From the IMG/VR virus record IMGVR_UViG_3300045988_128133: a stretch of DNA of 64,000 nucleotides; one strand, 5' to 3'. Both the position numbers and the translations under genes were made by a program. The DNA comes from a virus. This document shows, piece after piece, positions 997-62,364 of the stretch. The notes beneath the pieces are model-generated. The model worked only from the letters and a program-made list of their open reading frames with translations. It was not told the DNA's origin and did no database searches. How positions within the stretch are numbered: position 1 is the stretch's first letter; the number at the start of each line of letters is the position of its first letter.

Positions 997-2218
997 CGAA
1001 AAACCAGCAGACAACTCTGAGGCTACGCACAGCAAGTACAGCCCCAGCAAGATAGCACTCCTTGCTACCTGCCCCGGTTACGTGCCCCGCCCCCTGACAC
1101 AGGAAGAAGAGGAAGATGATTTCTCTCCCTCTGCCGTGGGTACCCGAGTCCACGGAGCCCTGGAAACCCAGAACCCGGATATGCTTCTGACCAAGCATGA
1201 ACGTTCCCTCTACACCGCGGCCAACAATATGGTTGGCATCCTGCGGGGGATGATGGAGAAGGAAGTAGGGACGGCAGACTTTGAAGTCCTGCCCGAACAT
1301 AAGTTCCCCGGAATCCTTTTTAACCCGGACGACCCGGAACAGACGGGGACTGCCGACGTGTTATTCCGACATGGGAATACCTCCATGATTATCGACTACA
1401 AGATGGGCATGGTGCCCGTTTCCAACCCTGAGGTCAATAGCCAATTTATTTACTACGGACTGTTGGAATTTGCGGAACGTCCTGAATGTGAAAGGATTAT
1501 ACTTGCAGTAATTCAACCGAGCCAGCAGGATGCGCTTAAAACCGCCGCCTTCTACCGGACGAAGGAATCACCGACATTTTCTTCCGACATGCCCGCGGTA
1601 CCCATGGGTGCCACGGAAGCCATGAAATCCATTGCCTCAGTTATTATCCGTCATGGCCGTGATGCGGACAACCCGTATGCCTACAGCTCATCCCCCCATG
1701 TCTGCCCTTACTGCGACCGACTGGCAACCTGTAAGAAGATTACCAGCATGGCCCGTAACTTCTCCCTCAAAGTATTGAAGGACAAGGATTTAGCGGAGGG
1801 GATGATTGACAGCGTAGGCACTGCCATGGACAACCCGGAAACCCTGGGCTCCCTTCTCTCCTTCGCAAGCATTATTGGGGAGGCGAATAAGGTGCATAAG
1901 GATTATGCCAAGACCCTGTTCGCCTGTGGGGTAGATGTACCCGGATGGAAGTACGCGAGCCGCGGGAATACGATTAAGGTGGACAACGATACGTTCCGCG
2001 CCTATGTCGAACAGCATCTATCCCCGGAAGAGATTCTGGACACTGTTTCCCGGCTTCCCGTAGCTAAGCTCCTTGACATCGTACTGGAACGAACCGCGGT
2101 CGAGGGAGCGAGCAAGGCAGAGAAGAAAGCCGCTAAGGAACTCCTGTTGAAGGACTTGCAGGACCTGGGCATTGTCCGCGAAGTGAAGAGCGCAATGGCT
2201 CTGCTGAAAATGAAGTAA
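983..2218 (+). CDS. PD-(D/E)XK nuclease with 4-Cys cluster (Cas4/RecB-like exonuclease)
   Basis: Motifs D...IDYK and QFIYY (Q-x3-Y). One N-terminal Cys plus C-terminal CPYCDRLATC (CxxCx5C) fits the Fe-S arrangement of Cas4/AddB-type nucleases. Confidence 0.55.
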   Translation: MQTNNEKPADNSEATHSKYSPSKIALLATCPGYVPRPLTQEEEEDDFSPSAVGTRVHGALETQNPDMLLTKHERSLYTAANNMVGILRGMMEKEVGTADFEVLPEHKFPGILFNPDDPEQTGTADVLFRHGNTSMIIDYKMGMVPVSNPEVNSQFIYYGLLEFAERPECERIILAVIQPSQQDALKTAAFYRTKESPTFSSDMPAVPMGATEAMKSIASVIIRHGRDADNPYAYSSSPHVCPYCDRLATCKKITSMARNFSLKVLKDKDLAEGMIDSVGTAMDNPETLGSLLSFASIIGEANKVHKDYAKTLFACGVDVPGWKYASRGNTIKVDNDTFRAYVEQHLSPEEILDTVSRLPVAKLLDIVLERTAVEGASKAEKKAAKELLLKDLQDLGIVREVKSAMALLKMK

Positions 2219-2225
2219 AAAGTTG

Positions 2226-2253
2226 TTGACATTTTCGGAAGTTCTGATATGTT
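2226..2253 (+). promoter_or_regulatory. sigma70-like promoter TTGACA-N16-TATGTT
   Basis: ttgacattttcggaagttctgatatgtt, about 80 nt upstream of the ATG at 2335. Confidence 0.5.
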
Positions 2254-2334
2254 CACTTCCACCGAGAGGTTAAGAGGGCGGTTCACTCGCTAAAGAAATT
2301 CCCTCAACTCGAATACAAGAATACTAGAATACAT

Positions 2335-3096
2335 ATGGCAACCGTAAGAAATACAAGTAACCCCGACACGCAGGACGAAGCCCTTGACCTCTGCACCACT
2401 GAAAAGCAGGAGCTTGCCACTGCCGAAACCTATCAGTCCTTTGAAGGTGAAACGGACGCGTCCGACATCCAGATTCCCTACCTCAAACTCTGGCAGGCCT
2501 CCTGTGAGGAAGCCAAGCTTGAGGAACCTGTAGGTAGCCTTGGTGCCTTCCTCCTTAACGGTCTCGTTGTCGCCGAGCGCAATAATCCTTTGGAATGCAT
2601 TGTGCTGAAAGCCAAAAAGTTTTTCCGGGAATACATCCCGTTCAACGAGCGTCAGCCTGGAGTCTTCGCCAAGTCCTGGAATACCAAGGAAGAATACGAA
2701 GCCGAAGGCTACGACAAGTCCCAGGTCAACCGCGCCCTGGCCATGTGGCTCCTGATTAAGAAGCCCGAAGGTATTAAGGATGCCTCCACCACGGAGGATG
2801 ACCTTGATGCTCTCTTCACGATTGACTTCATGGGTGCCCAGTGGACCCTTGCCCGCTACACCCCGGAAGGTAATCAGTACACAGGTGTTGGGGCTCCCTT
2901 CATTCAGTTCATGATGCTGAAGGGTGCCAAGACGGGTTCTCTCGCTTACCGTGTCCAGATTGGAGCTCAGCGTGCTGTAAGCCGCGATGGTAAGAACAGC
3001 TACGCGAAAGCGTTCCTTAAGTTCAAACCCCATCCCGTTGAAGGCCAGGTGGAGGCCATTCAGGAGATGGGCCTACTCTCCGCAGTCGCCAAGTAA
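2335..3096 (+). CDS. hypothetical protein; possible recombination/annealing partner of the upstream nuclease (position only)
   Basis: 253-aa ORF with coding-like composition, lying between the nuclease and the RuvC-like gene. No motif recognised. Confidence 0.4.
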   Translation: MATVRNTSNPDTQDEALDLCTTEKQELATAETYQSFEGETDASDIQIPYLKLWQASCEEAKLEEPVGSLGAFLLNGLVVAERNNPLECIVLKAKKFFREYIPFNERQPGVFAKSWNTKEEYEAEGYDKSQVNRALAMWLLIKKPEGIKDASTTEDDLDALFTIDFMGAQWTLARYTPEGNQYTGVGAPFIQFMMLKGAKTGSLAYRVQIGAQRAVSRDGKNSYAKAFLKFKPHPVEGQVEAIQEMGLLSAVAK

Positions 3097-3151
3097 GCGG
3101 CTCGCCTCATTGCCTTTGATTTTTCCATAGTTTAGTGTTTAGCACTAGGAG

Positions 3152-3193
3152 TCCCCCTGTTGCGCTGGGAAGCGTGGCAGGGGGTTTTCTTTA
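3152..3193 (+). terminator. rho-independent terminator
   Basis: CCCCCTG...CAGGGGG hairpin followed by TTTTCTTT. Confidence 0.55.
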
Positions 3194-3196
3194 GGC

Positions 3197-3225
3197 TTGA
3201 CTATCCTCCGTTTCTTCGGTATATT
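3197..3225 (+). promoter_or_regulatory. sigma70-like promoter TTGACT-N17-TATATT
   Basis: Ends 5 nt before the ATG at 3231, so the transcript would be leaderless or nearly so. Confidence 0.45.
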
Positions 3226-3230
3226 CCCGA

Positions 3231-3746
3231 ATGCAACTGGTAGCATGTGACCCCGGAGTCCACGGAGCCCTTGTACTCGCGGACACCCAGCAGAAAAAAA
3301 TCTACGTACAAAATATGCCGGAAGATACCCATGAGTTGGAAGGGCTCCTGAATCGGCTTCCTCGCCACAAGCATCGCAAGCTCGTAATTGAGAAGATGAG
3401 CTACGCTATGAGCGGAGGCGGTAAGGTGAGCAACCCCCGAAGCTCTGGAATCCTGGGCTATGCTACTGGGCGCGTTGTCGGTTATGCCGCCGCCTGCGGA
3501 TATGAGCTGACGGAAGTTCCCCCTGTCAAATGGATGCGGGCTGTTGGAGCCTACGATACGGGCCTGACTGCGCGGGATAGAACCCGCTGGAAGAACAACC
3601 TTAAACAGATAGCAATGGAGAACTTTCCGGGAGTGAAGGTAACGCTACAGAACGCGGATGCCCTGCTTATTCTCCTGTGGGCCTACCGCGAACTCAATGG
3701 CGACCACACCCTGACCCTTGACTCCTGGGATATTGTTCGACTCTGA
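3231..3746 (+). CDS. RuvC-like Holliday junction resolvase
   Basis: N-terminal VACDPGVHGALVLAD resembles the RuvC/YqgF catalytic start (G-x-D-P-G). 171 aa. Confidence 0.5.
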   Translation: MQLVACDPGVHGALVLADTQQKKIYVQNMPEDTHELEGLLNRLPRHKHRKLVIEKMSYAMSGGGKVSNPRSSGILGYATGRVVGYAAACGYELTEVPPVKWMRAVGAYDTGLTARDRTRWKNNLKQIAMENFPGVKVTLQNADALLILLWAYRELNGDHTLTLDSWDIVRL

Positions 3747-3749: not shown

Positions 3750-5585
3750 ATGGCAAGACATTTTACACGATATGGGAGGCAATGGGAATACGGAGTCTCC
3801 GAACTGGATATTGAGCTTTGGTGCTTCAAATATGACTGGCCTGTAGAGAAGGGTGGTCTGGGCCGATACGGCCATGCCCACAATGCGATTGACCTGCTCT
3901 GGAATTACGAGGGTAGTCCGACTCCTATTACCTGGACTCCCTGGCTGGAGCAAATGATAGAGACCGCATCGAAGTACAACGTCTGCATTATGGGTGGCGG
4001 TTCCTCCTGTGGGAAGTCCCTGTCCATGGCCATCATGGCCCTGCTCTTCTATCTGGCTGACCCTATTGACACTCTGTGTCTCGTCACCTCTACCACCATT
4101 GAAGGTGCGAAGAAACGTATCTTCAAGGATATTAAGAGGTTATGGCGTAAGGAGTTTCCTGGCAAACTCGTTGATGGTAAGGGCCAGATTAAAGGTATTA
4201 ACGAGGAAGGAGATATTGATGACTCCCGCGGCATCTCCATTATTCCCTGTGCCAACGTTGGCGACCCCAGTTCCCGGTTCATTGGTATTAAAGCAAAGAA
4301 CATGCACGTCTTCTATGACGAGCTTTCCGAATTGCCCATTGAACTGGTGGAAGTCTGGCGCACCAACCTTATCACCAACCGCGCAGACACGCCCCCCACA
4401 CTGATGGCCGCTTCCAACCCCAAGAGCCGCACAGATGCTTTCGGGGTGATGGCCATGCCGAAGGATGGTTGGAACTCCGTTGATATTTTCGAAGAGTACT
4501 CCTGGGAGACTAAGGACGGGATTTACATCCGCTTCGACAACACCCAAAACCCGCGAATCAAATACAAGCGCGAAGACTGGAGCTTCTATACTCCGCTCGA
4601 CATTGTTCAGCAGACTATCGAACAGTACGGGGAAAACAGCCCGTTCGTCCTCCGGTTCCACAAGGCCACCTTCTCTGACGACGCTGAAGAAGGTAGCCTT
4701 ATGTCGGAAGCGGAAATTTACGGGAGTGGAGCGGACGCTATGCCTGTCTGGGGTGAAGGTGAACTTATCACCATTGCGGGCCTCGACCCTGCCTACACTA
4801 ATGGAGGGGACCAGACCTGCCTAAAACTCGCGAAGGTAGGGAAGACCGTGGAAGGTCTCTGGGCCTGTGCCGTTACTCAGACATTCCTGCTCAAATCCAC
4901 CAGAGCCAAGGAGAAGATGAAACAGCGCAACTTCGACATCGCTCAGCAGGTGGGTGAAATTCTTCGTGCCAATAACGTTCAGAGCAAGCACCTTGCCGTT
5001 GACGTTACCGGGGGTACTGGGTTCATCGAGATTCTGGCCCAGCACGTCGGTACGGATTTCCAGACGGTCAGCTTCGCGGGCCAGGCCAGCAAGGTACCGC
5101 TGGGCCTTCTCCAAAATCAGGAAGCGTGTCAGCAGTATTCCAATAAGGTCTCTGAACTGTGGGGGTGCATGAAACTCGCCATTAACGCACGACAGCTGTA
5201 TGGCCTTGACCCTACGACGATTGTGGAGTTGAAGTCCCGCAACTATACCATGAATGGCACCCGTATTTCCGTGGAGCCCAAGGTAGCAATGAAGAAGCGG
5301 ATTCGCAAATCCCCTGACAACGCTGACGCTCTGGCTCTTATTGTCCACGTATGCCGCGGAATCATGGGGCCTGAGTTCGGTAAAATTCGACTTGACATCA
5401 GGAACCAGCAAGTGGTAAAACATGAAGAAGTTATCAAATACCGCACGGACGGCACAGCCTACATCGAAGCCCAGGATATTGGGAGATACCTTGGAGGCTT
5501 TACCCCAGCTACCGAAGCGGACCGACCCAAGCGGGATAATTTCCGCGAGGAAGTGAACCAAGCCATGAATCTGTTATGGACCTGA
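3750..5585 (+). CDS. terminase large subunit
   Basis: 611 aa. Walker A-like GGGSSCGKS, Walker B-like HVFYDELSE, and an acidic C-terminal nuclease-like half. Lies upstream of the portal, scaffold and capsid genes. Confidence 0.6.
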   Translation: MARHFTRYGRQWEYGVSELDIELWCFKYDWPVEKGGLGRYGHAHNAIDLLWNYEGSPTPITWTPWLEQMIETASKYNVCIMGGGSSCGKSLSMAIMALLFYLADPIDTLCLVTSTTIEGAKKRIFKDIKRLWRKEFPGKLVDGKGQIKGINEEGDIDDSRGISIIPCANVGDPSSRFIGIKAKNMHVFYDELSELPIELVEVWRTNLITNRADTPPTLMAASNPKSRTDAFGVMAMPKDGWNSVDIFEEYSWETKDGIYIRFDNTQNPRIKYKREDWSFYTPLDIVQQTIEQYGENSPFVLRFHKATFSDDAEEGSLMSEAEIYGSGADAMPVWGEGELITIAGLDPAYTNGGDQTCLKLAKVGKTVEGLWACAVTQTFLLKSTRAKEKMKQRNFDIAQQVGEILRANNVQSKHLAVDVTGGTGFIEILAQHVGTDFQTVSFAGQASKVPLGLLQNQEACQQYSNKVSELWGCMKLAINARQLYGLDPTTIVELKSRNYTMNGTRISVEPKVAMKKRIRKSPDNADALALIVHVCRGIMGPEFGKIRLDIRNQQVVKHEEVIKYRTDGTAYIEAQDIGRYLGGFTPATEADRPKRDNFREEVNQAMNLLWT

Positions 5586-51761: not shown

Positions 51762-51903
51762 TCTGATTGGTTTTATAATTTCTTTCGTCGTCAAAGCGTT
51801 TCCATTCTTCCTTGTACTGGTGGTAGGCATCCCACAGGATGATGAAGACGCACAGAGATAGGATGAAGGAAAAAATGATACCAAGATATAACAGAATTTG
51901 CAT
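51762..51903 (-). CDS. small single-TM protein (46 aa), not in ORF track
   Basis: MQILLYLGIIFSFILSLCVFIILWDAYHQ... Its stop overlaps the downstream ATG as ATGA. Confidence 0.3.
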
Positions 51904-51937
51904 AGAACTTATTAGTAGCGTTATATGAGGGTTCTAG

Positions 51938-52504: not shown

Positions 52505-52541
52505 TATCTTATTGATTAGTAGGGTTATATGAGGGTTCTAG

Positions 52542-52889
52542 TTAGAGAATAGGTGGGTTAATTCCGAAGTCCTTCATCCAGCGGGCCAGTACTGCGGCCT
52601 GGCTGATATGTTTACGCATGCGCTTCCTGCATATGTTGGTTGCAATCTCAATCAGGAAGGAGGGAAGGAACCAAACCAAGATGAGAGCGCACCATACATG
52701 GAAACCCAGGTCAAACTTTCCAACCACACCCGCAACAAGCATGGCGGTGGAGAGAAGGAATCCCACAACAGTGGTTGCAATCGTAGATTTTTCGAGCAAG
52801 TCCCATGCGGTGTGGTACCTATCCGCAAGGCCCATGTGCTTCAAATACTGGGCACGGGTATTAAGCACGGCTTCCTTAAACGTGTTCAT
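52542..52889 (-). CDS. small membrane protein (2-3 TM)
   Basis: Hydrophobic segments. Confidence 0.4.
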   Translation of the reverse strand: MNTFKEAVLNTRAQYLKHMGLADRYHTAWDLLEKSTIATTVVGFLLSTAMLVAGVVGKFDLGFHVWCALILVWFLPSFLIEIATNICRKRMRKHISQAAVLARWMKDFGINPPIL

Positions 52890-52912
52890 AGCGTTCTATG
52901 AGGGTTCTAGAA

Positions 52913-53521
52913 TTAACGGAAAACTACCTTAATTTCAGTCACATCTGAATCACCCTTCTTCTCAACCACCGTGCTAAACTTCACCATGCAGGGGAGGAAC
53001 ATCTTTTCGGCCATGCGGCGAGCCTTAATAGAGTTCAGCTTCTGAGCCTGTGGTTCGTCGGCGTTCAGTACCCTGAATTTCATGTAGGTCAGGCTTTGGT
53101 CTACCATGAAGTCAACGGCTTGAATCTCATTTGCAATTCTGAATGCCACATCCTGCCAGTTCTGGGTTATCACCTCCATGAAGGTACGTGCCCACTGCAC
53201 GGCATCCTTGAGTGACAGGGAAGCCACTTCCAAAATCGTCAGCACCTGCCCATTCCACTTCATCTTGTGAATACGGGTAATGTACGAAGTAAGGGAAATG
53301 CGTTGCAGTTCAACGGCATAAGGTCTCCGATACGGTTTGATGAATACCGAGCCTTCACCATTCCAAAGTTCCGGCTTCTCAATGCGTACAGACTCTTCAT
53401 CCTTATGTAGGAGCAGGGTGTTAGGCTGAATTTTATTTACATAGGTGGTCAATCTAATCCATTCAGGGCGAGAAAGTTCTTCACGGCTCTTGCATTCAGT
53501 ATTTACGAAAAAGGCTTTCAT
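52913..53521 (-). CDS. hypothetical protein
   Basis: 202 aa. Confidence 0.4.
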   Translation of the reverse strand: MKAFFVNTECKSREELSRPEWIRLTTYVNKIQPNTLLLHKDEESVRIEKPELWNGEGSVFIKPYRRPYAVELQRISLTSYITRIHKMKWNGQVLTILEVASLSLKDAVQWARTFMEVITQNWQDVAFRIANEIQAVDFMVDQSLTYMKFRVLNADEPQAQKLNSIKARRMAEKMFLPCMVKFSTVVEKKGDSDVTEIKVVFR

Positions 53522-53623
53522 GATTTATAGCGTTCTATGAGGTTTCTAGTATTTTGGTTGATGTTAATTTAGGTTAATTATCTTTTTTCTTTTGGATTGT
53601 TAGGGTAGCCTAATTTGTTAGTT

Positions 53624-54700
53624 CTATCTAAGGGAAGAAGTATCAAGCACCGGGTGCACTGGGTTAGTCTCCGAGTTGACAAGATAGGAAGAATGGGAAG
53701 ACATGAGGACGTGAAGCCGTTGATGCACCGCCTGATAGTGGCGGTGAGCATCTAACCATTCCGTCAAGAGACTGCGTAGGTACCGCTCACTTTTAGCACT
53801 AGTCAAAGCCGCTTCCACCTTTTCAAGCTCGCTTTTAATACGGTTCTCCTGCTCTTTCAAGACTTGCGCCAATTCCGCTTGCGCCCCTTCATCCAGTCGG
53901 AAGCTGACGGAACCACGGCATACATTGAAGGCACTTGCAGGGAAAGAAATAAGCTCAATAGCTTCCGCATCCGTTGAACAGTCTTCGCACCTTACCCAGA
54001 CTTGCACGGCTAATCTCTCCATATCCACAAGAACATCAAGGCCATGTTTGTCATGCAGATTGCGAAGGGCCTCAATTTCGCCGGACGCACGGTTGAATAA
54101 ATGTTCAGCAAGGTAGGGTGTGAAGCGATACCCTGCTAATGCCTTCAAATCAAGGCGTAATGCGGTCAGGAGATACTGGGAAACTGTCAAAGCTATCCGG
54201 CGATTGATTAGATAAGACTGTGTGCGCTTGATATCATGGAGAATAGACCACGCCGCATTGTGACATGCGGCCCCTTCATCAGGAGAGAGCAGGGGAAGAA
54301 AAGTACTCATGGCTCCAGCGCAAGCATTATCCACCTGCTTTAAATGGTTGTCTATTTGGTCATACCCGTTCACGCTCAAGAAGTTGAACAGGTTTGCATG
54401 GGGAGAAGCGGCTAAAGTTTTTCCGTTGGTAATATGAACTCCGTACGTTGGCATGAAATGGGAGGTTGCCAGCGTTACGCCGTTTCTCCGGCGCATTTGC
54501 GCCCCTTCTGCGTCATACGTCCAATTATAATCTGCATAGTTTATCCCATTGAACAGGAAAGCTTTCTGGATATCGTCCGGTTCCGGGTTGTCCAAATATT
54601 TCACAGGTCGAAGGCAATCCAAATCACCGCAGAATTGAATGAGAGAAAGGGTGTTGTCCTTGAAACTCTTGACAAGTTTAGTTGCGGAAATGTTTGTCAT
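53624..54700 (-). CDS. hypothetical protein
   Basis: 358 aa. Confidence 0.4.
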   Translation of the reverse strand: MTNISATKLVKSFKDNTLSLIQFCGDLDCLRPVKYLDNPEPDDIQKAFLFNGINYADYNWTYDAEGAQMRRRNGVTLATSHFMPTYGVHITNGKTLAASPHANLFNFLSVNGYDQIDNHLKQVDNACAGAMSTFLPLLSPDEGAACHNAAWSILHDIKRTQSYLINRRIALTVSQYLLTALRLDLKALAGYRFTPYLAEHLFNRASGEIEALRNLHDKHGLDVLVDMERLAVQVWVRCEDCSTDAEAIELISFPASAFNVCRGSVSFRLDEGAQAELAQVLKEQENRIKSELEKVEAALTSAKSERYLRSLLTEWLDAHRHYQAVHQRLHVLMSSHSSYLVNSETNPVHPVLDTSSLR

Positions 54701-54735
54701 ACTTAAATAATTGCTTAGGGTTAATGAGTTAGGAA

Positions 54736-55536
54736 TTAGCGGTTGTACTTAGGAAGGGCGGCGTTGTAGTCCGTGCGCTTGTAGTGATATGTTTTCGGTG
54801 ACGTAATGGACGCAATAAGGGCATCCTGCTTCACCAGTTCACGCTTTACTTTAATTGTAGATTGCACAATCTTTCGCAAGATGCTTTCTTTCTGCATGTT
54901 GTGGAGAGATGTAAGAGCACTTTCCGCCTTAGATTCCAGATATTCCACAGTTGCGTTTAGCTTGTCAATCACGGGTTGCATGTCATCTACGCTAACAATG
55001 CGCCCAGTTTCCGGACTCACTAACACCTTAAAATCCAACGGGAAAGAAATATGTTCCTCCAATCCTAGGCTTCCGTGGAATCGGAGGCAATGCAAATCGT
55101 AATTGCTGAAATCTACATAGCCTTTAATTGTACGGAGAGTCTCTTTTTTCCGGGCATCATCCAAAGAGTCGGAGAAGCAAGCCTTTATGGCATTGTCCAA
55201 CCGGGCGTTGTAGACCTTACCCGCAAAACTGGGAAGCTTAGCAATTAGCCGCCTGATGAAGTCAATGGAGATATTGGCGGCGTAATAATAATTAAAAAGT
55301 TTCACTCGTGTAACATTCAAATCATCCAAAAAGGTACGGATTGATGCACCCAGTTCCCGCCAGTCATCTTTACCGAGGCCTTCCCCCGGTTCACCGTTGA
55401 ACTGGTTCCAGACTTCTTCCCGAACCGTTTTAATAGCGGCATCACTTTTCGTCATGTATGCAATCGTTTCGTTATGTGTGGTATATTTCATTTTCTTATT
55501 CTTTCTATTGGTTTTGTTAATATCCTTAAATATCAA
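54736..55536 (-). CDS. hypothetical protein
   Basis: 266 aa. Confidence 0.4.
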   Translation of the reverse strand: MIFKDINKTNRKNKKMKYTTHNETIAYMTKSDAAIKTVREEVWNQFNGEPGEGLGKDDWRELGASIRTFLDDLNVTRVKLFNYYYAANISIDFIRRLIAKLPSFAGKVYNARLDNAIKACFSDSLDDARKKETLRTIKGYVDFSNYDLHCLRFHGSLGLEEHISFPLDFKVLVSPETGRIVSVDDMQPVIDKLNATVEYLESKAESALTSLHNMQKESILRKIVQSTIKVKRELVKQDALIASITSPKTYHYKRTDYNAALPKYNR

Positions 55537-56084
55537 TCAATTATGCGTAACACCCTTGCTTCTGCGTCATCCGTACTGGGTGCCATATAACGCCCGCAAC
55601 CGTCAAAAGTTTCCGTTGCGGATGCGTCCATGAAATTAGTATGGACGTAATAGCTAAGATAAGGGCGGCCGTGCTTCGCATAATTCCACCCTACGGGAGC
55701 ATATTCATCATTCCAACGCATATCTGCAACACGCTTAAAACCTGCGTTTTTATATATTTTCGATAAATGGGGCGTATCGAGGCACATCAGCCACCCGGCA
55801 CCGTGAGCAACCGCATCACAGACTAGCCCGCTTCCGAGTATGATACTTTTCGGAGACTTAATGAGAGATACTAGCTCAAGATTTTCCGTGATTGCATAAA
55901 CTGCAACCGGGTTTGACGGTGTGCCTATCAAGTGGCAGTGCGCTTTCTTTTGGACATACCAGCTTTCTTCATGCACATCCACCGCGCCGCGCGTTCCTTC
56001 GTCAATCTTATTACGCAATTTATGCGCGGCGGTCAGCCATTCATTAAGGTCTTCGGTTTCGGCGTTGTAGCAATATCTATTCAT
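55533..56084 (-). CDS. possible GNAT-fold acetyltransferase
   Basis: ILGSGLVCDAVAHGAGW...YKNAGFKRV is a weak match to the acetyl-CoA-binding motif A. Confidence 0.3.
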   Translation of the reverse strand: MNRYCYNAETEDLNEWLTAAHKLRNKIDEGTRGAVDVHEESWYVQKKAHCHLIGTPSNPVAVYAITENLELVSLIKSPKSIILGSGLVCDAVAHGAGWLMCLDTPHLSKIYKNAGFKRVADMRWNDEYAPVGWNYAKHGRPYLSYYVHTNFMDASATETFDGCGRYMAPSTDDAEARVLRIID

Positions 56085-56149
56085 AATCTATTGTCTTTCT
56101 ATTGTTCGGTTGTTTTGTTCACCGCCCCTTATTGGCGGCTGATGTGGCT

Positions 56150-56177
56150 ATTTTAGCGGATTTGCGGATGTTGTCAA
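56150..56177 (-). promoter_or_regulatory. early promoter TTGACA-N16-TAAAAT (cassette A)
   Basis: Minus-strand read. TTTTGTCATACA lies at 56192-56203, an AT-rich UP-like tract, and a conserved leader hairpin CCGCC/GGCGG. Confidence 0.55.
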
Positions 56178-56185
56178 ATTATTTT

Positions 56186-56576
56186 TTAGACTGTATGACA
56201 AAACGGAGATTTATTTAGTAGTTTTGCTATCTGTATTTTTGCAATTCTGTGAGAAGGAAACACCCTAGAACATTTTCTTTTATATGTTGATAAGGTGCAA
56301 GGTGTTAGACAATTTGCCCGAACGTAATAAATTGTTGAATCTTCTTCTCCACCGTAAGGACGTACTAAACCTATTTCAATATATCCGGCTGAAATAAGTT
56401 CTTCAATGGGTCTTTTTGTTGCAATAGCCAGCCAGCTATACTTCTCCAACTGTACCGCATCTTTAATAGGTACGGAAGAAGCCTTTTCATCCGATACGGG
56501 AATCAATTCACTATTTACTACCTTATACCGGAACACCAAATCGTCAGCCAAAGGTAAAAATTTTATTCTTTTCATA
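56186..56576 (-). CDS. hypothetical early protein (ATG 56576)
   Basis: TTGTCATACAA at 56590-56602 abuts its start region. Confidence 0.35.
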
Positions 56577-56601
56577 TTATTTTTCAAGGTTGTATGACAA
56601 A

Positions 56602-57150
56602 TTACAAATAATTAACATGAGAGAGATACTTACTCCAATTCAGATTTTCCGGCTCTACTTCCTGCCCTTTCACCTGACGGAAGCGCATAAAGAGCTCCAC
56701 CTTTTTTCCTTTGGTATCATATCCGGGTGCGCTCCACTCTTCCAGATATTCTTCCCCCTCCCCCGCGTGGTGAATACTACCCGGAAAAAATCGGTTGGAA
56801 AGGGTCATTTGACGGGTGGCGCAATAGACGTGCCCTTGATAGACATACCCGCCGAACTGTTTTCGGAGTCCGTGAAAATCAACAGGGCATTGACCTTGCA
56901 CAAAGTAAAAATTATTGTTAACTACCAACCCTAAACGGAGGGAAACTGCACCGAGAGCACGGGCAATCAAACCTTCCAAAGATTTGACGGAATCGGAGGC
57001 GGTCAAATAGACTACCCATGCTTGGCCATGCCTCCAACAAATATGTTCCCGTTGGAGTGCGTTCTTAACACGTTTTTTAGCGTTGCGCCCTTCGGCACCT
57101 TGTGCATTGAGGCAGTCAAATAAAATTACGATTGTTTTTGCAGTTTTCAT
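56602..57150 (-). CDS. hypothetical early protein
   Basis: 182 aa. Confidence 0.35.
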   Translation of the reverse strand: MKTAKTIVILFDCLNAQGAEGRNAKKRVKNALQREHICWRHGQAWVVYLTASDSVKSLEGLIARALGAVSLRLGLVVNNNFYFVQGQCPVDFHGLRKQFGGYVYQGHVYCATRQMTLSNRFFPGSIHHAGEGEEYLEEWSAPGYDTKGKKVELFMRFRQVKGQEVEPENLNWSKYLSHVNYL

Positions 57151-57204
57151 ATTTAGTTTTTCTATTTGGTTTGTTCACCACCCTTGTGGGTGGCTGATGA
57201 AGTT

Positions 57205-57232
57205 AATCTAGCAGATTTTGCTACCTTGTCAA
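57205..57232 (-). promoter_or_regulatory. early promoter TTGACA-N16-TAGATT (cassette B)
   Basis: Leader hairpin is CCACCC-ACAA-GGGTGG. Confidence 0.5.
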
Positions 57233-57266
57233 ATTATTTTTTACTTTGTATGACAAAATGGATAAA

Positions 57267-57587
57267 TTATTGATTGATAATGGCTTGTGCGTAGTCCATA
57301 ATATTGCTTACGTGTACAACCCGGAAGCGTTCCTGTTCCGCAATCAGGGCAATGTCTTTTTGCTGACGGGAAGTTGTCTGGGAGTATTTGCGGGAAGAAA
57401 GATAAAGGATTTTATTTGCTCTATCTACTGCCGCAATTATGGTGGCATATGAGTACAAGAGCGGCCCCTCAAATTTCATTGAGCGAAGGCTTCCATAGTT
57501 GGTGCGGCGCAATGGTGCTTTCCCGCTGGTTGCGGTTCCGTCCAGATACGGGTACATAAGTTTTTCAACGTAGTTTCGGGTATTCAT
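57267..57587 (-). CDS. hypothetical early protein
   Basis: 106 aa. Confidence 0.35.
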   Translation of the reverse strand: MNTRNYVEKLMYPYLDGTATSGKAPLRRTNYGSLRSMKFEGPLLYSYATIIAAVDRANKILYLSSRKYSQTTSRQQKDIALIAEQERFRVVHVSNIMDYAQAIINQ

Positions 57588-57643
57588 ATTCTGTTTTCTT
57601 TCTATTTGATTTGTTTGCCGTCCTATCGGTGGCTGATGAAGCT

Positions 57644-57671
57644 AGTTTATCGGATTTGATGATGTTGTCAA
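57644..57671 (-). promoter_or_regulatory. early promoter TTGACA-N16-TAAACT (cassette C)
   Basis: TTTTGTCATACAA lies at 57699-57711. Confidence 0.5.
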
Positions 57672-57717
57672 CTATTTTATTTAAAATTTTTCATCTTTGT
57701 ATGACAAAAGTTGAAAC

Positions 57718-57951
57718 CTATTTATTTTCAGTGCGTTTCACGTTTGTAAATATTAGGCAGGTTAAGGGGCCGCTGGTAGGGCATATGCCTGATAAAACCC
57801 ATTCACCGGGAAATTTCCGCTTGTCAATTCTTTTTTCTCTTTTTTGCGGTGTATCTGATTTCGGCCCTAGCGTCATCACCCTTTCCGGCGTTCCCCTCAT
57901 TCTGCCTATCCGAAATGTTTCGGTGGTTATCTCGTCCATATTAAGCGGCAT
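57718..57951 (-). CDS. possible small basic protein in 228-nt gap
   Basis: 77-aa ORF that overlaps the upstream stop by 11 nt. Composition is only moderately coding-like. Confidence 0.2.
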   Translation of the reverse strand: MPLNMDEITTETFRIGRMRGTPERVMTLGPKSDTPQKREKRIDKRKFPGEWVLSGICPTSGPLTCLIFTNVKRTENK

Positions 57952-58264
57952 TCATTCCGGCATCTTCCAGCATCAAGCAAAGCGGGTCAGAAATGTGCAC
58001 CCGTGAAACTTTCCAATCGGCTTCATTTCGGCGGTACTCGTCAATCGTCATTTCCCGGTGCGGTACGTTTTTGAGCAGGCCCCGCTTTTTTGCGATAATG
58101 GTAAGAGTTGCACCGCATTTTTCCGCTAGGTTAGTAAGATAGACTAGTTCCGTTGCGGCATTTTTTGATAGTTGCAGGGTATATGGTTCAACCTGCCTCA
58201 CATTAGCGGCTAGATTTTTAATCATCACCCGTTCATAAGGTTTGAGTTCGGCAATGGTATTCAT
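57941..58264 (-). CDS. hypothetical early protein
   Basis: 107 aa. No promoter of its own, so probably co-transcribed with the 58289 gene. Confidence 0.35.
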   Translation of the reverse strand: MNTIAELKPYERVMIKNLAANVRQVEPYTLQLSKNAATELVYLTNLAEKCGATLTIIAKKRGLLKNVPHREMTIDEYRRNEADWKVSRVHISDPLCLMLEDAGMNAA

Positions 58265-58288
58265 GATTGATTGTTAGTAGGTTAAAGA

Positions 58289-58528
58289 TTAGTCAAAAAG
58301 CAGTTCAAAGCCGTCTTCATACTTGCTCAATTCCGCATCCCATGAATCCGCAACTTCTTTGATAAGTGATTCAATGGCTTCCGGGTTTTCGGTAATTACG
58401 TAGATAATGCAAGTGTTGGTGGTGCGGAAACTTTGCCCCGTGATGCGGTTGATATGCTGGTGTATGTTTTGCTGATGCGCCTTTTCCCAGATTTCGCTTG
58501 CAATTATTGCCATAGTTTCTTCTCTCAT
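58289..58528 (-). CDS. small acidic early protein
   Basis: 79 aa, acidic. Confidence 0.35.
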   Translation of the reverse strand: MREETMAIIASEIWEKAHQQNIHQHINRITGQSFRTTNTCIIYVITENPEAIESLIKEVADSWDAELSKYEDGFELLFD

Positions 58529-58607
58529 AATCTATTGTCTTTCTATTTGGTTTGTTCACCGCCCCTTGTGGGTGGCTGATACCGCTATCGCGGCGGGTTA
58601 TGCGGCT

Positions 58608-58635
58608 ATTTTATCGGGTGTTCTAATGTTGTCAA
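58608..58635 (-). promoter_or_regulatory. early promoter TTGACA-N16-TAAAAT (cassette D)
   Basis: Consensus -35 and -10 elements, with TTTTGTCATACAA at 58664-58676. Confidence 0.55.
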
Positions 58636-58690
58636 CTATTTTATTTAAAATTTTTCGAGGTTGTATGACAAAATCGTAAATTGTTGATTA

Positions 58691-59185
58691 TTAGTTAGAT
58701 AGTTTGAAGTGAGGGCGGGCAATACTGGTTGGCAGGTAAATATCATCATGGGTGGCAAAGAGCACACGCCCATTGCGGATGACCGCAAACGCCGTCCACC
58801 CGTCATTGCGGGCAAGTACTGATGTCAGGGCGTTAAGATAGGTTCCTATCGTCCTGCGTCCGTCCGGTTTGTGTGCACCAACGGGCGGCTCGCTTTTATC
58901 GCACCAGAAATAGACGGTGCAGTTATGAAGTGAAGTAGATAATGGGGCCGGAATGATGCCCGTGTATCTATAGCGGCTCTCCACATACCAAGGTGTACAA
59001 GGTGCCGGGCCACCAAAGGCAGGGGAGTTTTCGAACCGGGAGTCTGGGGCGGTAGGGGAGACAAGCAAAAAATGACGGGAAAACTCGTCAGCTTGTGCCC
59101 GTTCTTCGGCGGTCGTATCTCCAAAGTCTCCTGTACGGAGGTAATTGACAAGGCGGGTAGGAATATATGCAATATCTGTGTTCAT
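58691..59185 (-). CDS. hypothetical early protein
   Basis: 164 aa. Confidence 0.35.
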   Translation of the reverse strand: MNTDIAYIPTRLVNYLRTGDFGDTTAEERAQADEFSRHFLLVSPTAPDSRFENSPAFGGPAPCTPWYVESRYRYTGIIPAPLSTSLHNCTVYFWCDKSEPPVGAHKPDGRRTIGTYLNALTSVLARNDGWTAFAVIRNGRVLFATHDDIYLPTSIARPHFKLSN

Positions 59186-59233
59186 ATGTTTATTTTGGTT
59201 GCGGGGGAGGTACCGCCCCCCGGTGATTGATAT

Positions 59234-59575
59234 TTAGTCATTAACGCCGAAGGCCAAACGGGCGGCGGCTCCCATGACGGAGGTATTAAGCTCATGCCGG
59301 GTTGCTACGATATTATTGCCCTGACGGGTGGCCACATCCGTGAAATAGAGATTGCGGGCCTTGCGGGCATCCTTATCATTGCGGATATCATGGCCCAGAT
59401 AGTTTTCCAGTAGGTCTTTATCCTCATTCCAACATGCCGCAACGTCGATATTATCGATGCAGGGCCTAATGGATTCTGTGGGCACCGGGGATGCAAAGAC
59501 TGTCCGGCTTCCGTGGGTTACAAACATGTGTAAGGTTCCGGCGTTATCTTCAATCACAATGTAGTTCATATTCAT
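59234..59575 (-). CDS. hypothetical early protein
   Basis: 113 aa. Confidence 0.35.
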   Translation of the reverse strand: MNMNYIVIEDNAGTLHMFVTHGSRTVFASPVPTESIRPCIDNIDVAACWNEDKDLLENYLGHDIRNDKDARKARNLYFTDVATRQGNNIVATRHELNTSVMGAAARLAFGVND

Positions 59576-59637
59576 AATATATTGTCTTTTTCTATTTTGG
59601 TTTGTTATTCACCGCCTTATTGGCGGTTGATGCGGCT

Positions 59638-59665
59638 ATTTTATCGGGTATGATGACGTTGTCAA
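59638..59665 (-). promoter_or_regulatory. early promoter TTGACA-N16-TAAAAT (cassette E)
   Basis: Leader hairpin is ACCGCC-AATAA-GGCGGT. Confidence 0.55.
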
Positions 59666-59731
59666 CTATTTTTTTTTTAAAATTTTTTCAGCTTGTATGA
59701 CAAAAGTTGCAATGCCCTCACTACGTGTGAC

Positions 59732-60313
59732 TTATCGCACGGGAAAAACTTCGCATCCTACCACAACCACCCGGCAATATTCCCGGCCGTCATTCTTGGC
59801 TTCCCGGATTGTGGTGACTAGCCGGGTTAAATCGTCCGGGTTTTTGAGGGTGAGGGCAAGAGCCGAGCAAGTGACGGTACCAAGTTCCATTGCTTCAAAA
59901 TTGGATTTAATGGCGGCGAGTACCCGGGTGCGGGTCTCTTTGTTTTTGATAAGACTAGCCATGACGATTACTTTTTTCCCGGCATACTTTGCAGACAGTT
60001 CGGCGGGCGTGGGGGAAATGGCACTAAAGGCATGGCGGCCCGCATTCCTCATATTTTCCCACAAGGGGCGGCGGCAATAAACTAGTTCTGTCCCCGGCGT
60101 TGCGGCCGTTGCAGTCCACCACTTGCGGGCATCGATGATATCTACGGGCATTTTCCAGCTCTTCACCTCATGCAAATTGTTGAGCATGTGTGGCAAGTAT
60201 TCAGCCGATACCGGGCCAGCAAATCTGATATCACCTAGATTATCAACCACAACTAAACGGAGTTCACCCGTCTTTGTTTCGTACACTAGCACATGGAGTT
60301 CTTTCTTATTCAT
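59732..60313 (-). CDS. hypothetical early protein
   Basis: 193 aa. Its N-terminus is duplicated in the adjacent pseudogene. Confidence 0.4.
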   Translation of the reverse strand: MNKKELHVLVYETKTGELRLVVVDNLGDIRFAGPVSAEYLPHMLNNLHEVKSWKMPVDIIDARKWWTATAATPGTELVYCRRPLWENMRNAGRHAFSAISPTPAELSAKYAGKKVIVMASLIKNKETRTRVLAAIKSNFEAMELGTVTCSALALTLKNPDDLTRLVTTIREAKNDGREYCRVVVVGCEVFPVR

Positions 60314-60326
60314 ATCTTATATCTTT

Positions 60327-60522
60327 CTATCGTTTGGTTTGATTTGTTTTGTGGTAGTTATTAAGCGTTTTCGGTATCGTTCAAATTACGTAGGAGGGTG
60401 AGCAAGGATTCTGTGGGTACAATAGGGGCGATTGCCTGATTCCCCTTATCGTCCATGACTATCATACGGAGTTCACCCGTCCGGGTTTCGTAAATATGTG
60501 CGGTCACTTTGGCCATGTTCAT
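60327..60522 (-). pseudogene. frameshifted partial duplicate of the 5' end of gene 59732..60313
   Basis: MNMAKVTAHIYETR, then a +1 shift, then TGELRMIVMDDKGNQAIAPIVPTESLLTLLRNLND aligns with HVLVYETKTGELRLVVVDNLGD...LNNLHE. DNA shares the 15-mer ACGGGTGAACTCCGT, and the shift comes from a 1-nt insertion. Confidence 0.45.
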
Positions 60523-60572
60523 ATTCTATTGTTTTTCTATCGTTTAGCCGCCAATGAGGGTGACGGTTACAA

Positions 60573-60602
60573 GTATTATTTAGTATTTTCGGAGGTTGTC
60601 AA
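60573..60602 (-). promoter_or_regulatory. early promoter TTGACA-N18-TAATAC (cassette F, variant leader)
   Basis: Leader shares the 33-nt block ggttacaagtattatttagtattttcggaggtt with the 61017 region. Confidence 0.35.
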
Positions 60603-60626
60603 TAAGTTTTTTCGGAGTATGACAAA

Positions 60627-61019
60627 TTAAAGCAAACGGTCATCGATGACGCTAACCCATTGATTATTTGCCGCATCATAGCGGGGTGCAACAAAGAGAG
60701 CGGAATCAACCCCTAGCGGCATCCATGCAATGCGCTCATGCATGGGCAGATTGTTGAGGAGACTCGCCGGGGGTGTGCCGTCAGGGGAAATGAGCATCAC
60801 GCCATTTTCGGAGGCCCGTACAACAGTCACACCCGGATAATTCCGGGAAACGTTCGGCCATGCGTACCGGGTCATGAGGTCTAAAATCAGCAAGGCATCT
60901 TTAGCAGTCATGCCCGTATACCAACGTACCCGGTCATCTACCGTTGACCACATAATAAGAGTAGATTCTTGCAGTTCGTAGCTTATATGCAGGTTTTCAA
61001 TAATTCCTTTCAGCTTCAT
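60627..61019 (-). CDS. hypothetical early protein
   Basis: 130 aa. Its upstream cassette lacks TTGACA, so it is probably co-transcribed with the 61093 gene. Confidence 0.35.
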   Translation of the reverse strand: MKLKGIIENLHISYELQESTLIMWSTVDDRVRWYTGMTAKDALLILDLMTRYAWPNVSRNYPGVTVVRASENGVMLISPDGTPPASLLNNLPMHERIAWMPLGVDSALFVAPRYDAANNQWVSVIDDRLL

Positions 61020-61092
61020 AAGTTATTGTCTTTCTATTGTTTGGCCTTCCTTTCGGCGGTGGTTACAAGTATTATTTAGTATTTTCGGAGGT

Positions 61093-61323
61093 TTAGGCAC
61101 GGAGCCGGACTTTCCAATCTTCAACGGTGGCGGGCAAGCCGAAAGCCGGGAAGCGGGTGAAGTAGTGCTCTTCACCGCAACGAGCCACAAGGTAATAGTC
61201 AGCTTTAAACCCATTGGCAAGCGCAATGTCCTCAAGGGTTAGGCCGTCCGTATCTCCGTATTCCAAATAACAAAGGGCCCATTCAGGAATTGCGGCGATT
61301 TCGTATTCTTCCAGTTCGTTCAT
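61093..61323 (-). CDS. small acidic early protein
   Basis: 76 aa. First gene of the array. Confidence 0.35.
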   Translation of the reverse strand: MNELEEYEIAAIPEWALCYLEYGDTDGLTLEDIALANGFKADYYLVARCGEEHYFTRFPAFGLPATVEDWKVRLRA

Positions 61324-61379
61324 ATCTATTATCTTTCTATTGTTTGGTTTAACCTCCCTTGTGGGCGGTTGATGTGCTC

Positions 61380-61407
61380 ATTTTACAAGAGAGTAGGGTA
61401 CTGTCAA
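61380..61407 (-). promoter_or_regulatory. early promoter TTGACA-N16-TAAAAT (cassette G)
   Basis: Here the TTTTGTCATACA element (61476-61487) is in inverted orientation. Confidence 0.5.
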
Positions 61408-61529
61408 TAGATTTATTTGATAATTGTTGATACTCATTGGCGAAAGCGGTGTAACTCGTTGAACCTGTGGCAATTATGATTTTGTCATACATCTCCGCTT
61501 CGCTATGATGCGGGCCGTACATCTCCGCT

Positions 61530-61742
61530 CCCACGGTTCCCACGGTTCCCACGGTTCCCACGGTTCCCACGGTCGCCATATGTGCGTGCGCGCGTGTGCG
61601 TGCATATGTATATAGTGGTTGCCGTGGGTTCCGTGGAGTCCGTGGAGTGTATGGGTAGCATGGGAACCGTGGAGTGTATGGGTAGCATGGGAACCGTGGA
61701 GTCAATGGGAACCGTGGAGTCAATGGGAACCGTGGGTTCCGG
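61530..61742. repeat. large imperfect inverted-repeat cluster of CCACGG-type units (candidate ori/pac/partition site)
   Basis: 5x tandem CCCACGGTT (61530-61574), then an alternating Pu/Py tract (61577-61614), then inverted units GGAACCGTGGAGT: 2x a 27-bp unit plus 2x an 18-bp unit (61621-61742). Confidence 0.85.
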
Positions 61743-61810
61743 CCGCGCCTCATGTATGGTAACTCCCTGATGCTAAGTCTGTTACATTTCTTATACAACT
61801 GTATAACTTT

Positions 61811-61845
61811 TAGTTTAGGTTTCTTAATAGTTTAGGTTTCTTAAT
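61811..61845. repeat. direct repeat AGTTTAGGTTTCTTAAT x2; nearby AAAATTTATAC x3 (61847, 61879, 61971)
   Basis: Seen directly in the sequence. Confidence 0.7.
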
Positions 61846-62321
61846 TAAAAATTTATACCGTTCGCATACCTTCACATAAAATTTTATACGAAGTGCATGC
61901 GAAGGGTGCAAATTAGAGCACGGAAATCACGGAAACAGTGTAAAATAGTCCAATATCAGACCATCCCACATAAAAATTTATACGCCTGTATAGGAAATGT
62001 GCCAACCTTTTACAATTTTGTAAAATGAAGCATGCTTCGGATAATTTAAGACCTTCATCCTCAACGTATTCCCCTTATTCTGACAGGATTAGTAGGATTA
62101 AAAAGATGAGGCCAGTTCTCAAATAACATTCCTACCAATTAGGCATTATATGTATTATGCGAAGTATGGAACTGTAACCCATTGATTCTATGGTACTTAT
62201 AGCAAACAGGGTGCCAATAGGAAACAGGGGAGAGTGGAAGCATGCACCAATTGCGTGAAGGGGCAGGCTACCCTATACCTTATTGAGTATCTGACGGTTA
62301 GGGGAAGCGGAAGCCGGAAAG

Positions 62322-62364
62322 CCACGGATTCCACGGATGCCGGGAGGCCACGGATGCCGGGAGG
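62322..62364. repeat. tandem CCACGGATGCCGGGAGG x2 preceded by CCACGGATT
   Basis: gccacggattccacggatgccgggaggccacggatgccgggagg. Confidence 0.8.

Follow-up and report, generated by a model that had tools for sequence, protein, structure and literature searches.

Strictly 9-bp-periodic CCNNGG arrays in an uncultured gut phage are DNA elements under purifying selection and candidate binding sites of a phage-encoded protein

Why would one short motif recur, often in tandem, throughout the genes of a phage chromosome? This question is raised by the IMG/VR virus record IMGVR_UViG_3300045988_128133, of which a 64 kb stretch (hereafter the window) was analysed, which represents most of an uncultured tailed-phage genome of approximately 70-72 kb. 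The initial annotation of the window had claimed a genome-wide over-representation of the hexamer CCACGG, and this turned out to be real and stronger than claimed: CCACGG/CCGTGG occurs 108 times as compared to 34.8 +/- 6.1 (maximum 49) in dinucleotide shuffles, and the 15-mer pattern GAAYCCACGGAWYCC was found 52 times at up to two mismatches, with 0.9 occurrences being expected. All examples listed in support exist, albeit with some coordinates being off by about 10 nt (26438-26457 instead of 26448-65 and 38019-38033 instead of 38009-23). Variants with CCATGG were located at 10991-11014 and 40432-40446, and the exact 15-mer GAACCCACGGATTCC, which had been reported from two different genes (at 28183 and 30465), possesses a third copy at 15842; altogether, identical 15-28-mers recur in unrelated genes. 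What did not stand is the assignment of the motif to the transcribed strand, as sense and antisense CCACGG were counted at 57:40.

The sequence context of the 108 sites revealed that CC recurs at +9 and +18 and GG at +13, i.e., a strict 9-bp CCNNGG register. The motif is in fact an array with a period of 9 bp, (CCNNGG-NNN)n, with the consensus CCACGG-AWN in the window and (A)(W)N-CC-A-C-GG-(A)(W)N within the family (325 units from 124 distinct arrays). Pairs of CCNNGG are spaced by 9, 18, 27 and 36 bp at frequencies of 9.2, 4.2, 2.8 and 2.3 per 10 kb respectively, whereas other spacings do not exceed 0.9 per 10 kb, except for 1-bp overlaps in CCC/GGG runs (2.2), and the adjacent pair CCNNGGNNNCCNNGG was counted 59 times versus 1.6 expected. 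The window harbors 40 arrays (27 with two, nine with three, two with four and two with five units), and the cores of their 99 units are AC (35), GT (20), CC (10), GC (9) and AT (7), with spacers being mostly AAT or ATT. Isolated CCACGG/CCGTGG sites amount to 53 with a chance expectation of about 35-47, and therefore the CCACGG excess resides in the arrays. Array density is 0.68 per kb in the long rightward gene block, 0.19 in the leftward early block and 2.2 in the non-coding region from 61.3 to 64 kb, and 33 of the 40 arrays locate to open reading frames (ORFs) spread over 1.6-55 kb. Here, the frame xCC-RYG-Gxx prevails (42/57 sense CCACGG and 29/40 sense CCGTGG sites), in which (S/P/T/A)-(T/V/A/M)-(E/D/G), i.e., small or acidic residues, are encoded, while the other frames would encode Pro-Arg/Trp or His/Arg-Gly. 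That the motif also occurs in other frames and in non-coding DNA, as stated initially, was borne out: the remaining sites use the other two frames and 12 are intergenic. Units mostly share one orientation within an array, mixed orientations within single arrays do occur, and nowhere along the window does unit orientation switch. The 9-bp register as well as the confinement of enrichment and conservation to arrays, the non-coding hub, the lineage restriction and the associated regulator gene described below go beyond the initial annotation.

Is it the protein or the DNA that is kept? Within coding DNA the paired pattern was observed 53 times, as compared to 2.2 under codon permutation within genes and 4.1 under a synonymous-codon shuffle (z = 28-35), meaning that the enrichment survives the codon-preserving null models proposed as a test, and that a shuffle which leaves the proteins unchanged abolishes more than 90% of the paired pattern. 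Conservation was derived from alignments of the window with relatives of group A, whose nucleotide identity to it is 88%, and of group B (81%). In group B, the motif C/G at third codon positions of arrays differs in 5/112 to 11/102 cases versus a background of 35-38% (p = 2e-9 to 4e-15), and in a codon-class-matched control (xCC and RYG elsewhere) the third position varies by 30-37%, the silent motif C/G of arrays hence being 3-8 times more conserved than the same codon classes elsewhere. The central NN, which occupies codon positions 1 and 2, differs in 14-20% versus 10% background and the array spacer in 21-33%, both thus evolving faster than background, so that within arrays the usual divergence pattern of coding DNA is inverted. 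Flanks at a distance of 10-30 nt diverge at background level, and therefore neither hitch-hiking nor recent transfer explains the conservation; recent recombination was rejected as its cause for the same reason. Isolated CCNNGG sites are conserved to a degree near background, and therefore the array was identified as the functional unit, as expected for cooperative binding. As isolated sites are neither enriched nor conserved, hexamer-specific repair, methylation or restriction was rejected. The same holds true for a low-complexity linker context (0.456 at array flanks versus 0.455), for a peptide tandem repeat of linker or collagen-like type, given the synonymous shuffle and the silent sites being the most conserved ones, and for DnaA boxes, of which TTWTNCACA yielded 2 matches versus 4.2 expected and none in the hub, the unit GAATCCACG agreeing with it at only 6/9 positions. 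Considering the synonymous shuffle, the conserved silent sites, the occurrence in three frames and in non-coding DNA, and the longest arrays, which are non-coding and keep the CC..GG spacing, we conclude that the arrays act in cis as DNA elements and that purifying selection maintains them, in agreement with the initial suggestion that selection acts on DNA rather than peptide.

Indels at arrays comprise whole 9-bp steps only, also when the genomes compared are 98% identical, and the central dinucleotides switch among AC, GT, GC and AT in relatives. Arrays were moreover built by substitution without any change in length, as documented at 1593 and 10991, where group C possesses unrelated sequence of the same length. 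The arrays at 3251, 5269 and 24361 are common to relatives down to 74% identity, and others are lineage-specific, in either direction.

Non-coding DNA harbors the longest arrays, in which direct units are followed by a stretch of alternating purines and pyrimidines and then by inverted units. The left arm of this hub at 61.5 kb (61529-61575) comprises five perfect tandem copies of TCCCACGGT with CCACGG every 9 bp (3-5 copies with a different spacer in relatives). It is followed by a central spacer of 41 nt, CATATG-(GY)n-CATATG (61576-61616), which in relatives is replaced by (TA)n or other easily melted sequence, and by the right arm (61617-61741) with inverted CCGTGG at 61622, 61631, 61640, 61667, 61694, 61712 and 61730, between which degenerate NNATGG units locate, all of them on the 9-bp register. 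The inverted-repeat arms are 50 nt long and 74-76% complementary, and the region folds at z = -5. Approximately 40 nt upstream of the left arm resides a TTTGTCATAC box (61481-61490, + strand), which is the -33-type element of the repeated early promoters and is conserved in all hubs, and the hub is flanked by AT-rich 17-mer tandem repeats (TAGTTTAGGTTTCTTAA x2, 61811-61845; 2-4 copies in relatives). The architecture was identified in five genomes, i.e., the window and four others, with 3-5 units per arm and varying spacer letters; in group C the hub is made of CCCCGG/CCGGGG units around a (TA)n spacer, and the only constant features across hubs are the outer CC/GG and the register. Together with the AT-rich repeats the hub lies approximately 2.5-4 kb upstream of a gene for a VapE/D5-like superfamily 3 (SF3) primase-helicase, and in the closest contig the hub-bearing non-coding region precedes genes for this primase-helicase, a family A DNA polymerase (PolA), an SNF2-type helicase and an exonuclease. 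Promoter boxes adjoin arrays at the hub, at 18317 (upstream of the box at 18352) and, in group C, within the intergenic region that corresponds to 26.2 kb; in the latter two cases the array lies just upstream of a TGTCATAC box.

Several further observations concern the hub region. The hub was considered as a physical genome end, as several group C contigs start just right of it, but this was dropped since contig 115948 shows a 55-nt terminal overlap typical of circular assembly; the repeats probably made the assemblies of these contigs break at a common point. Within 61331-64000, a repeat family TGTCAAG(C/A)(A/G)AAA(T/A)CGACGCGCGGC is present in 5-6 copies, each after a G-rich stretch, TAAAAATTTATAC occurs four times, and a second alternating purine/pyrimidine tract locates to 63866-63900. 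The group C counterpart is similar but longer, with GATTCCG-type repeats, and the region may hold an origin, a packaging site or small RNAs. It has no match in Rfam. Further TTTGTCATAC boxes are found upstream of small early genes at 18352 and 54693 on the + strand and at 56194, 56593, 57249, 57700, 58664, 59696 and 60618 on the - strand, and each repeated box is followed after about 17-20 nt by a TAATTTGAC-like sequence. The most over-represented 9-mer is GTATGACAA, with 11 copies versus 0.4 expected. Comparison of locus L341 (contig 135811) with 59234-61490 of the window showed that the hub context stops precisely at the TTTGTCATAC box and gives way to an oppositely oriented early promoter and gene. 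It follows that recombination between copies of the promoter box inverted or otherwise rearranged this segment, and this relative lacks the hub at that place.

Groups W, A, B and C as well as lineage L390 (0.81 arrays/kb) possess the 9-bp signal. It is absent from relatives whose terminase is 57-61% identical, and also from L388 and L389 (no array in 21 kb each) and L391 (a single one in 17 kb). When 2.9 million viral contigs were scanned for three consecutive CCACGG units, dispersed arrays were identified only in this family, the unrelated viral matches with CCNNGG repeats having a single array or a few closely spaced ones. The same scan of 185,579 species genomes returned at least 120 matches, those listed being mostly single sites in high-GC actinobacteria; among the matches listed, none came from Bacteroidota except one Balneolaceae metagenome-assembled genome. 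Phage literature yielded nothing relevant on CCACGG or a 9-bp periodicity.

Array-bearing lineages share a pair of genes. The ORF at 23517-23873 (+ strand) encodes a MarR-family winged-helix regulator of 118 aa (106 aa according to other callers, which place the start 12 codons later), as documented by Pfam MarR_2 PF12802 (42.7 bits versus a cut-off of 27) and by an AlphaFold2 model (predicted local distance difference test score, pLDDT, of 77), for which Foldseek returned E. coli MarR and its relatives as top matches (probability 1.0, template-modelling score of about 0.6). Directly upstream, 23060-23542 (+ strand) encodes a basic protein of 160 aa (isoelectric point 9.6), helix-turn-helix-like by eye, for which no family match was obtained and whose single-sequence AlphaFold2 model was unusable (pLDDT 31). 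The pair is syntenic in W, A, B (61% identity), C (36-38%) and L390 (36-40%), i.e., in lineages with 0.3-0.9 arrays/kb, and is missing at the syntenic site in L388/L389 and L391, where ThyX is found instead; the basic protein was found only where arrays were found. About 480 bp downstream of the MarR gene, a two-unit array (24356-24380) forms a perfect 25-bp palindrome, GGTACCCACGG-TTC-CCGTGGGTACC, which is identical in W, A and B and has CCTCGG in one unit in group C. The DUF6926 protein adjoining the hub (61093-61323) was dropped as a binder, being acidic and having only close homologues; a possible second DUF6926 protein, below cut-off, is encoded at 58691-59185.

With moderate confidence, the arrays are suggested to be contiguous binding sites, one per 9 bp, for a two-fold-symmetric, sequence-specific protein encoded by the phage. 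Each CCNNGG unit, preferably CCACGG, would present the same outer CC/GG contacts in either orientation, whereby two adjacent units (15 bp) would form the minimal site for one dimer and longer arrays would bind several dimers cooperatively. The hub, flanked by the first leftward early gene on one side and the replication module on the other, would serve as master site and most likely represents an early-promoter and/or origin control region, and the approximately 35 short intragenic arrays would be secondary sites in the frame xCC-RYG-Gxx, whose peptide should be the easiest tolerated. As a chromosome-wide operator or roadblock network, the intragenic arrays would most likely allow one regulator to silence or time the long rightward (structural) transcription unit in a stoperator-like manner. 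The best candidate for the binder would be the MarR-type protein, possibly together with the basic protein. Tentatively, this may be extended to a lattice over at least 30 genes, a second and protein-independent code, in which in-frame 9-bp-periodic arrays nucleate one phage regulator (MarR-like, with or without its basic partner) along the whole chromosome and link the origin/early-promoter hub to structural-gene control; such a lattice would be a periodic, intragenic counterpart of the stoperators, evolving by 9-bp slippage and being kept at silent codon positions.

Stoperators are more than 20 copies of one short phage-specific motif distributed genome-wide next to a promoter-proximal operator, for which a block of elongation was proposed (PMC9283540). 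They are single asymmetric 13-mers, bound by a monomer, that lie in short intergenic gaps and promoters and are strictly oriented with transcription (PMC9283540). The arrays resemble those of the Cluster A mycobacteriophages (L5 gp71-type immunity repressor) in that there are many sites, 40 arrays in 64 kb, in a lineage-specific manner and tied to one phage-encoded regulator (here the MarR-like candidate), but differ in being tandem 9-bp quasi-symmetric units with at least two per site, which are mostly in-frame within ORFs and in either orientation, in a phage for which no temperate lifestyle is evident. A second comparison is offered by the ribbon-helix-helix protein omega (ParB) of pSM19035, which binds heptads, i.e., short contiguous units, direct or inverted, whose number matters and which are cooperatively occupied by one dimer each (PMC9499535). 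The arrays likewise consist of contiguous short units (exactly 9 bp), direct or inverted and with mixed orientation within arrays. MetJ met-boxes and ParR iterons share the contiguous-unit traits of the omega heptads, and units of ribbon-helix-helix arrays range from 7 to 11 bp. The resemblance ends at the protein and the placement: Pfam scans of about 85 ORFs detected no ribbon-helix-helix, ParA or ParM family, although weak homologues could be missed among such very divergent proteins, and known ribbon-helix-helix arrays are placed at a few promoters or centromeres, whereas the arrays here reside inside dozens of genes. Chi, the DNA uptake sequences (DUS/USS), HIP1 and the FtsK-orienting polar sequences (KOPS) are also short over-represented motifs partly embedded in coding DNA, but are properties of host genomes, made of single-copy and often strand-polar sites, whereas the array motif is periodic and, among the viral contigs scanned and the genome matches listed, was found in dispersed arrays only in one phage lineage. 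As to MarR-family operators, a MarR-fold regulator is encoded and the two-unit arrays are 15-bp pseudo-palindromes with two half-sites, one of them being the perfect 25-bp palindrome; half-sites 9 bp apart would suit a winged-helix dimer in adjacent major grooves. The arrays were set apart from stoperators, ribbon-helix-helix arrays and origin iterons because in each case at least one defining feature lacks a match.

Several points weigh against binding by such a regulator. To our knowledge, characterised MarR operators consist of one or few pseudo-palindromes overlapping or near promoters and neither expand in tandem nor form a lattice within genes. Although array-bearing lineages have the same motif, the identity of their MarR orthologues is just 36-40%. 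The co-occurrence of gene pair and arrays probably reflects a single evolutionary gain and is effectively one observation, and the array-free lineages were compared over 17-21 kb each. The arrays lack the strict orientation to transcription of stoperators, no integrase or other sign of lysogeny which would call for genome-wide silencing was found, and a cultured relative is missing, with neither a nucleotide nor a terminase match among 50,697 phage records. Finally, an origin would account for the architecture of the hub no less well than an operator.

This last point leads to the first of the rival explanations, which were ranked as initiator iterons, slippage with biased repair, an RNA-level element, recombination or modification targets and peptide selection. 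According to the first, which we consider unlikely though more probable than the other four, the units would be origin iterons and the hub an origin with inverted initiator sites flanking a DNA-unwinding element, as in SV40, papillomavirus, P4 and archaeal origins, the intragenic arrays serving the VapE/D5-type primase-helicase as additional sites for loading, priming or titration. Initiator sites in such an arrangement are established for SF3-helicase initiators, and the hub shares with the sites of P4 alpha, SV40 T antigen and papillomavirus E1/E2 the opposed short units, the easily melted spacer (alternating purine/pyrimidine or (TA)n), the AT-rich tandem repeats and the adjoining primase-helicase gene. 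Tandem short repeats in non-coding DNA beside an easily melted, AT-rich segment and replication genes, here more than 2.7 kb of non-coding DNA immediately upstream of primase-helicase, PolA, helicase and exonuclease, are what an iteron origin would look like, and a mean array spacing of about 1.6 kb agrees with dispersed sites for the primase-helicase. Dispersed and selected intragenic copies, on the other hand, are not a feature of origins: most arrays lie inside ORFs rather than being confined to an origin, and we know of no precedent for some 35 selected intragenic copies, known iterons being origin-confined. Unit orientation does not switch around the hub as would be seen for oriented priming sites, array-free relatives presumably still replicate with homologous replication genes, and no origin-binding domain was identified.

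Less probable still, the arrays might be a functionless by-product of mutation, i.e., 9-bp microsatellites which arise by replication slippage and are homogenised by gene conversion or motif-directed short-patch repair. The exact 9-bp steps in copy number between 98%-identical genomes, the perfect tandem copies (five in the hub, six in one group C gene) and the predominant co-orientation of units within an array are all as slippage would have it, but it explains neither the same CC..GG unit in unrelated genes nor the conservation of only four outer bases while centre and spacer evolve faster than background, nor does it produce arrays by point substitution at unchanged length. Repair directed by the hexamer would moreover protect isolated sites too, which are near background.

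An element acting in RNA appears improbable to a further degree. Here, CC..GG, often as ..CGGA.., would bind an RNA-binding protein in the mRNA or set local structure or translation speed, for which the excess of sense CCACGG over CCGTGG (57:40 in the window; in group C loci, 30:4 among units of the + (coding) strand) and a weak bias of arrays towards the first 15% of genes (27% versus 15%, p = 0.06) may be quoted. Both orientations, however, occur in the same arrays and the same frame, the strongest arrays are non-coding, upstream of promoter boxes and organised in inverted sets, it is the strand-symmetric letters that are conserved, and no match to an Rfam family was obtained.

To the same low degree of probability, the arrays may be microhomology boxes for module exchange between related phages, or targets of restriction-modification, methylation or another DNA modification. 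Discontinuities of identity towards group B are somewhat commoner at arrays, a weak signal (mean absolute identity difference 0.15-0.18 versus 0.09-0.11) that was not seen towards group A, and the identical 15-28-mers in unrelated genes could serve exchange, yet the flanks reveal no hitch-hiking. CCNNGG and CCRYGG are type II restriction sites, which favours a modification target; a single-site enzyme, however, needs no 9-bp register, isolated sites are neither enriched nor conserved, and no methyltransferase was found among the approximately 85 ORFs scanned. Selection for acidic Ser/Thr linker repeats, (E/D)-S-T, is effectively refuted: although 42/57 sense sites encode x-(S/P/T/A)-T-(E/D/G)-x, group C arrays mostly encode (D-S-T)n and such peptides resemble the Bacteroidota O-glycosylation sequon, D-(S/T)-(A/I/L/V/M/T), the pattern falls from 53 to 4.1 in the synonymous shuffle, silent positions are the most and amino-acid-determining ones the least conserved, arrays occur in other frames and in non-coding DNA, and their flanks are not of low complexity.

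If the arrays are binding sites, they would provide a clear example from nature of a virus with dense dual coding, with dozens of ORFs carrying a regulatory lattice that becomes visible as conserved silent sites next to relaxed amino acids, and would constitute a new type of genome-wide control element for uncultured gut phages. The same reading yields a testable protein-DNA pair, namely the 118-aa MarR-like protein and a 15-bp site. Elements of this sort are detectable from sequence alone by combining periodicity with codon-position-resolved conservation, and short E/D-S-T 'linker repeats' in phage proteins may, as a caution for annotation, be footprints of DNA-level selection.

The genes in which the arrays reside are arranged in two blocks. 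The rightward block (34-45,684) comprises helicase, exonuclease, RuvC-like resolvase, large terminase and structural genes as well as a 3199-aa ORF, and in the leftward early block (45,813-61,323) ThyX and an NAD-dependent ligase are encoded together with many small ORFs; no convincing genes were identified in the remainder of the window, which starts at 61.33 kb. Gene coordinates are ORF-based calls, whose reading frames are right because third codon positions are 3-5-fold more divergent among relatives, and Pfam and PHROGs searches of the approximately 85 ORFs gave very few matches. Near-identical and related contigs derive from human-gut metagenomes. The repeated early promoter resembles the Bacteroidota -33/-7 type (TTTG...TAnnTTTG) and a Shine-Dalgarno signal was not found, therefore suggesting a Bacteroidota host; judged from these sequence signals, the host is probably a gut Bacteroidota.

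Within the rightward block, the first array comprises three units at 1593-1616 in the exonuclease gene, where relatives vary NN (GC/GT/AC) and keep CC..GG and which group C lacks. Two units each follow at 3251-3265 (frame 2, 5' end of the RuvC-like resolvase gene, conserved in W, A, B and C) and 5269-5283 (large terminase gene), then the three CCATGG-variant units at 10991-11014, four units at 11189-11221, exactly one of which is missing in one relative, two-unit arrays at 15837-15851 and 15975-15989, and three units at 18065-18088 that are identical in group B. The intergenic two-unit array at 18317-18331 ends about 20 nt upstream of its TTTGTCATAC promoter box, and of the next two-unit arrays (19549-19563 and 22386-22400) the former lacks one 9-bp unit in a 98%-identical relative. 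The two units at 23105-23119 stand in frame 0 and encode PRKPRN; because this peptide is conserved, selection on the protein instead of the DNA may maintain the array. Further downstream, two-unit arrays were located at 26438-26452 (frame 2), 27803-27817, 28187-28201 and 33812-33826, three-unit arrays at 26896-26919, 33005-33028 and 34034-34057 (relatives with a 9-bp insertion), and a five-unit array at 28458-28499 (9-bp indels in groups A and B). Two units each are found at 35557-35571 and 35866-35880 in the 3199-aa ORF, at 36013-36027, which is weak and could be chance, and at 38023-38037, followed by four units at 38080-38112 and by two arrays of two and three units, 12 nt apart (38575-38625), for which relatives show AC->GT flips and a 9-bp insertion. 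The block ends with two-unit arrays at 40432-40446 (the second CCATGG location) and 42625-42639 and three units at 43999-44022. The early block contains two-unit arrays at 51062-51076 (early gene on the - strand), 51257-51271 (5' end of early gene 50631-51278) and 55064-55078. Beyond the hub, non-coding arrays are CCACGGATTCCACGGATG with a third unit CCACGGATG 17 nt on (62322-62353) and two units each at 62448-62462 (conserved in group C), 63171-63185 and 63248-63262.

The 3199-aa ORF (34788-44387) contains 10 arrays and has no PHROG match. Three independent group B contigs end 60-85 nt past the array at 38575, where the similarity to the window stops (residue 1262), which suggests an assembly break or a hypervariable distal part of this ORF. 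About 7.7 kb of the genome lie outside the window, the content of which is documented by locus L026 (12-7248): genes for the VapE/D5-like primase-helicase, four small ORFs, the family A DNA polymerase and an SNF2/DEAD helicase, the C-terminal part of which corresponds to the first ORF of the window (34-996). In the early block, small paralogues share an N-terminal ...TGELR(L/M)(V/I)V(V/M)D... segment, clearly so at 59732-60313 and 60361-60522 and more weakly in a third (59234-59575); these and the DUF6926 proteins are of unknown function.

Group C (552 kb; loci L005-L025, L031, L032 and L035-L037) is almost devoid of CCWGG hexamers and CCATGG (0.00-0.01 per kb), and group F (L033, L034, L038 and L039) is without CCWGG and CCGCGG, whereas the window lineage shows no such avoidance; judged from these counts, the depletion resembles an avoidance of restriction sites that is specific to the lineage. 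A perfect 16-bp stem, GATTGCGAGAATATAC / GTATATTCTCGCAATC, with a 7-nt loop locates to 26207-26245, just upstream of gene 26259-27011, and in group C the stem is replaced at the equivalent intergenic position by a TGTCATAC promoter box together with three CCACGG units and an inverted one. Tandem repeats unrelated to the motif comprise a 27-bp unit (x3.3, 11329-11416) that forms an acidic repeat within gene 11092-12282, a perfect 29-bp unit (x2.3, 19720-19786) and the intergenic AATTAACC (x4.5, 19138-19173).

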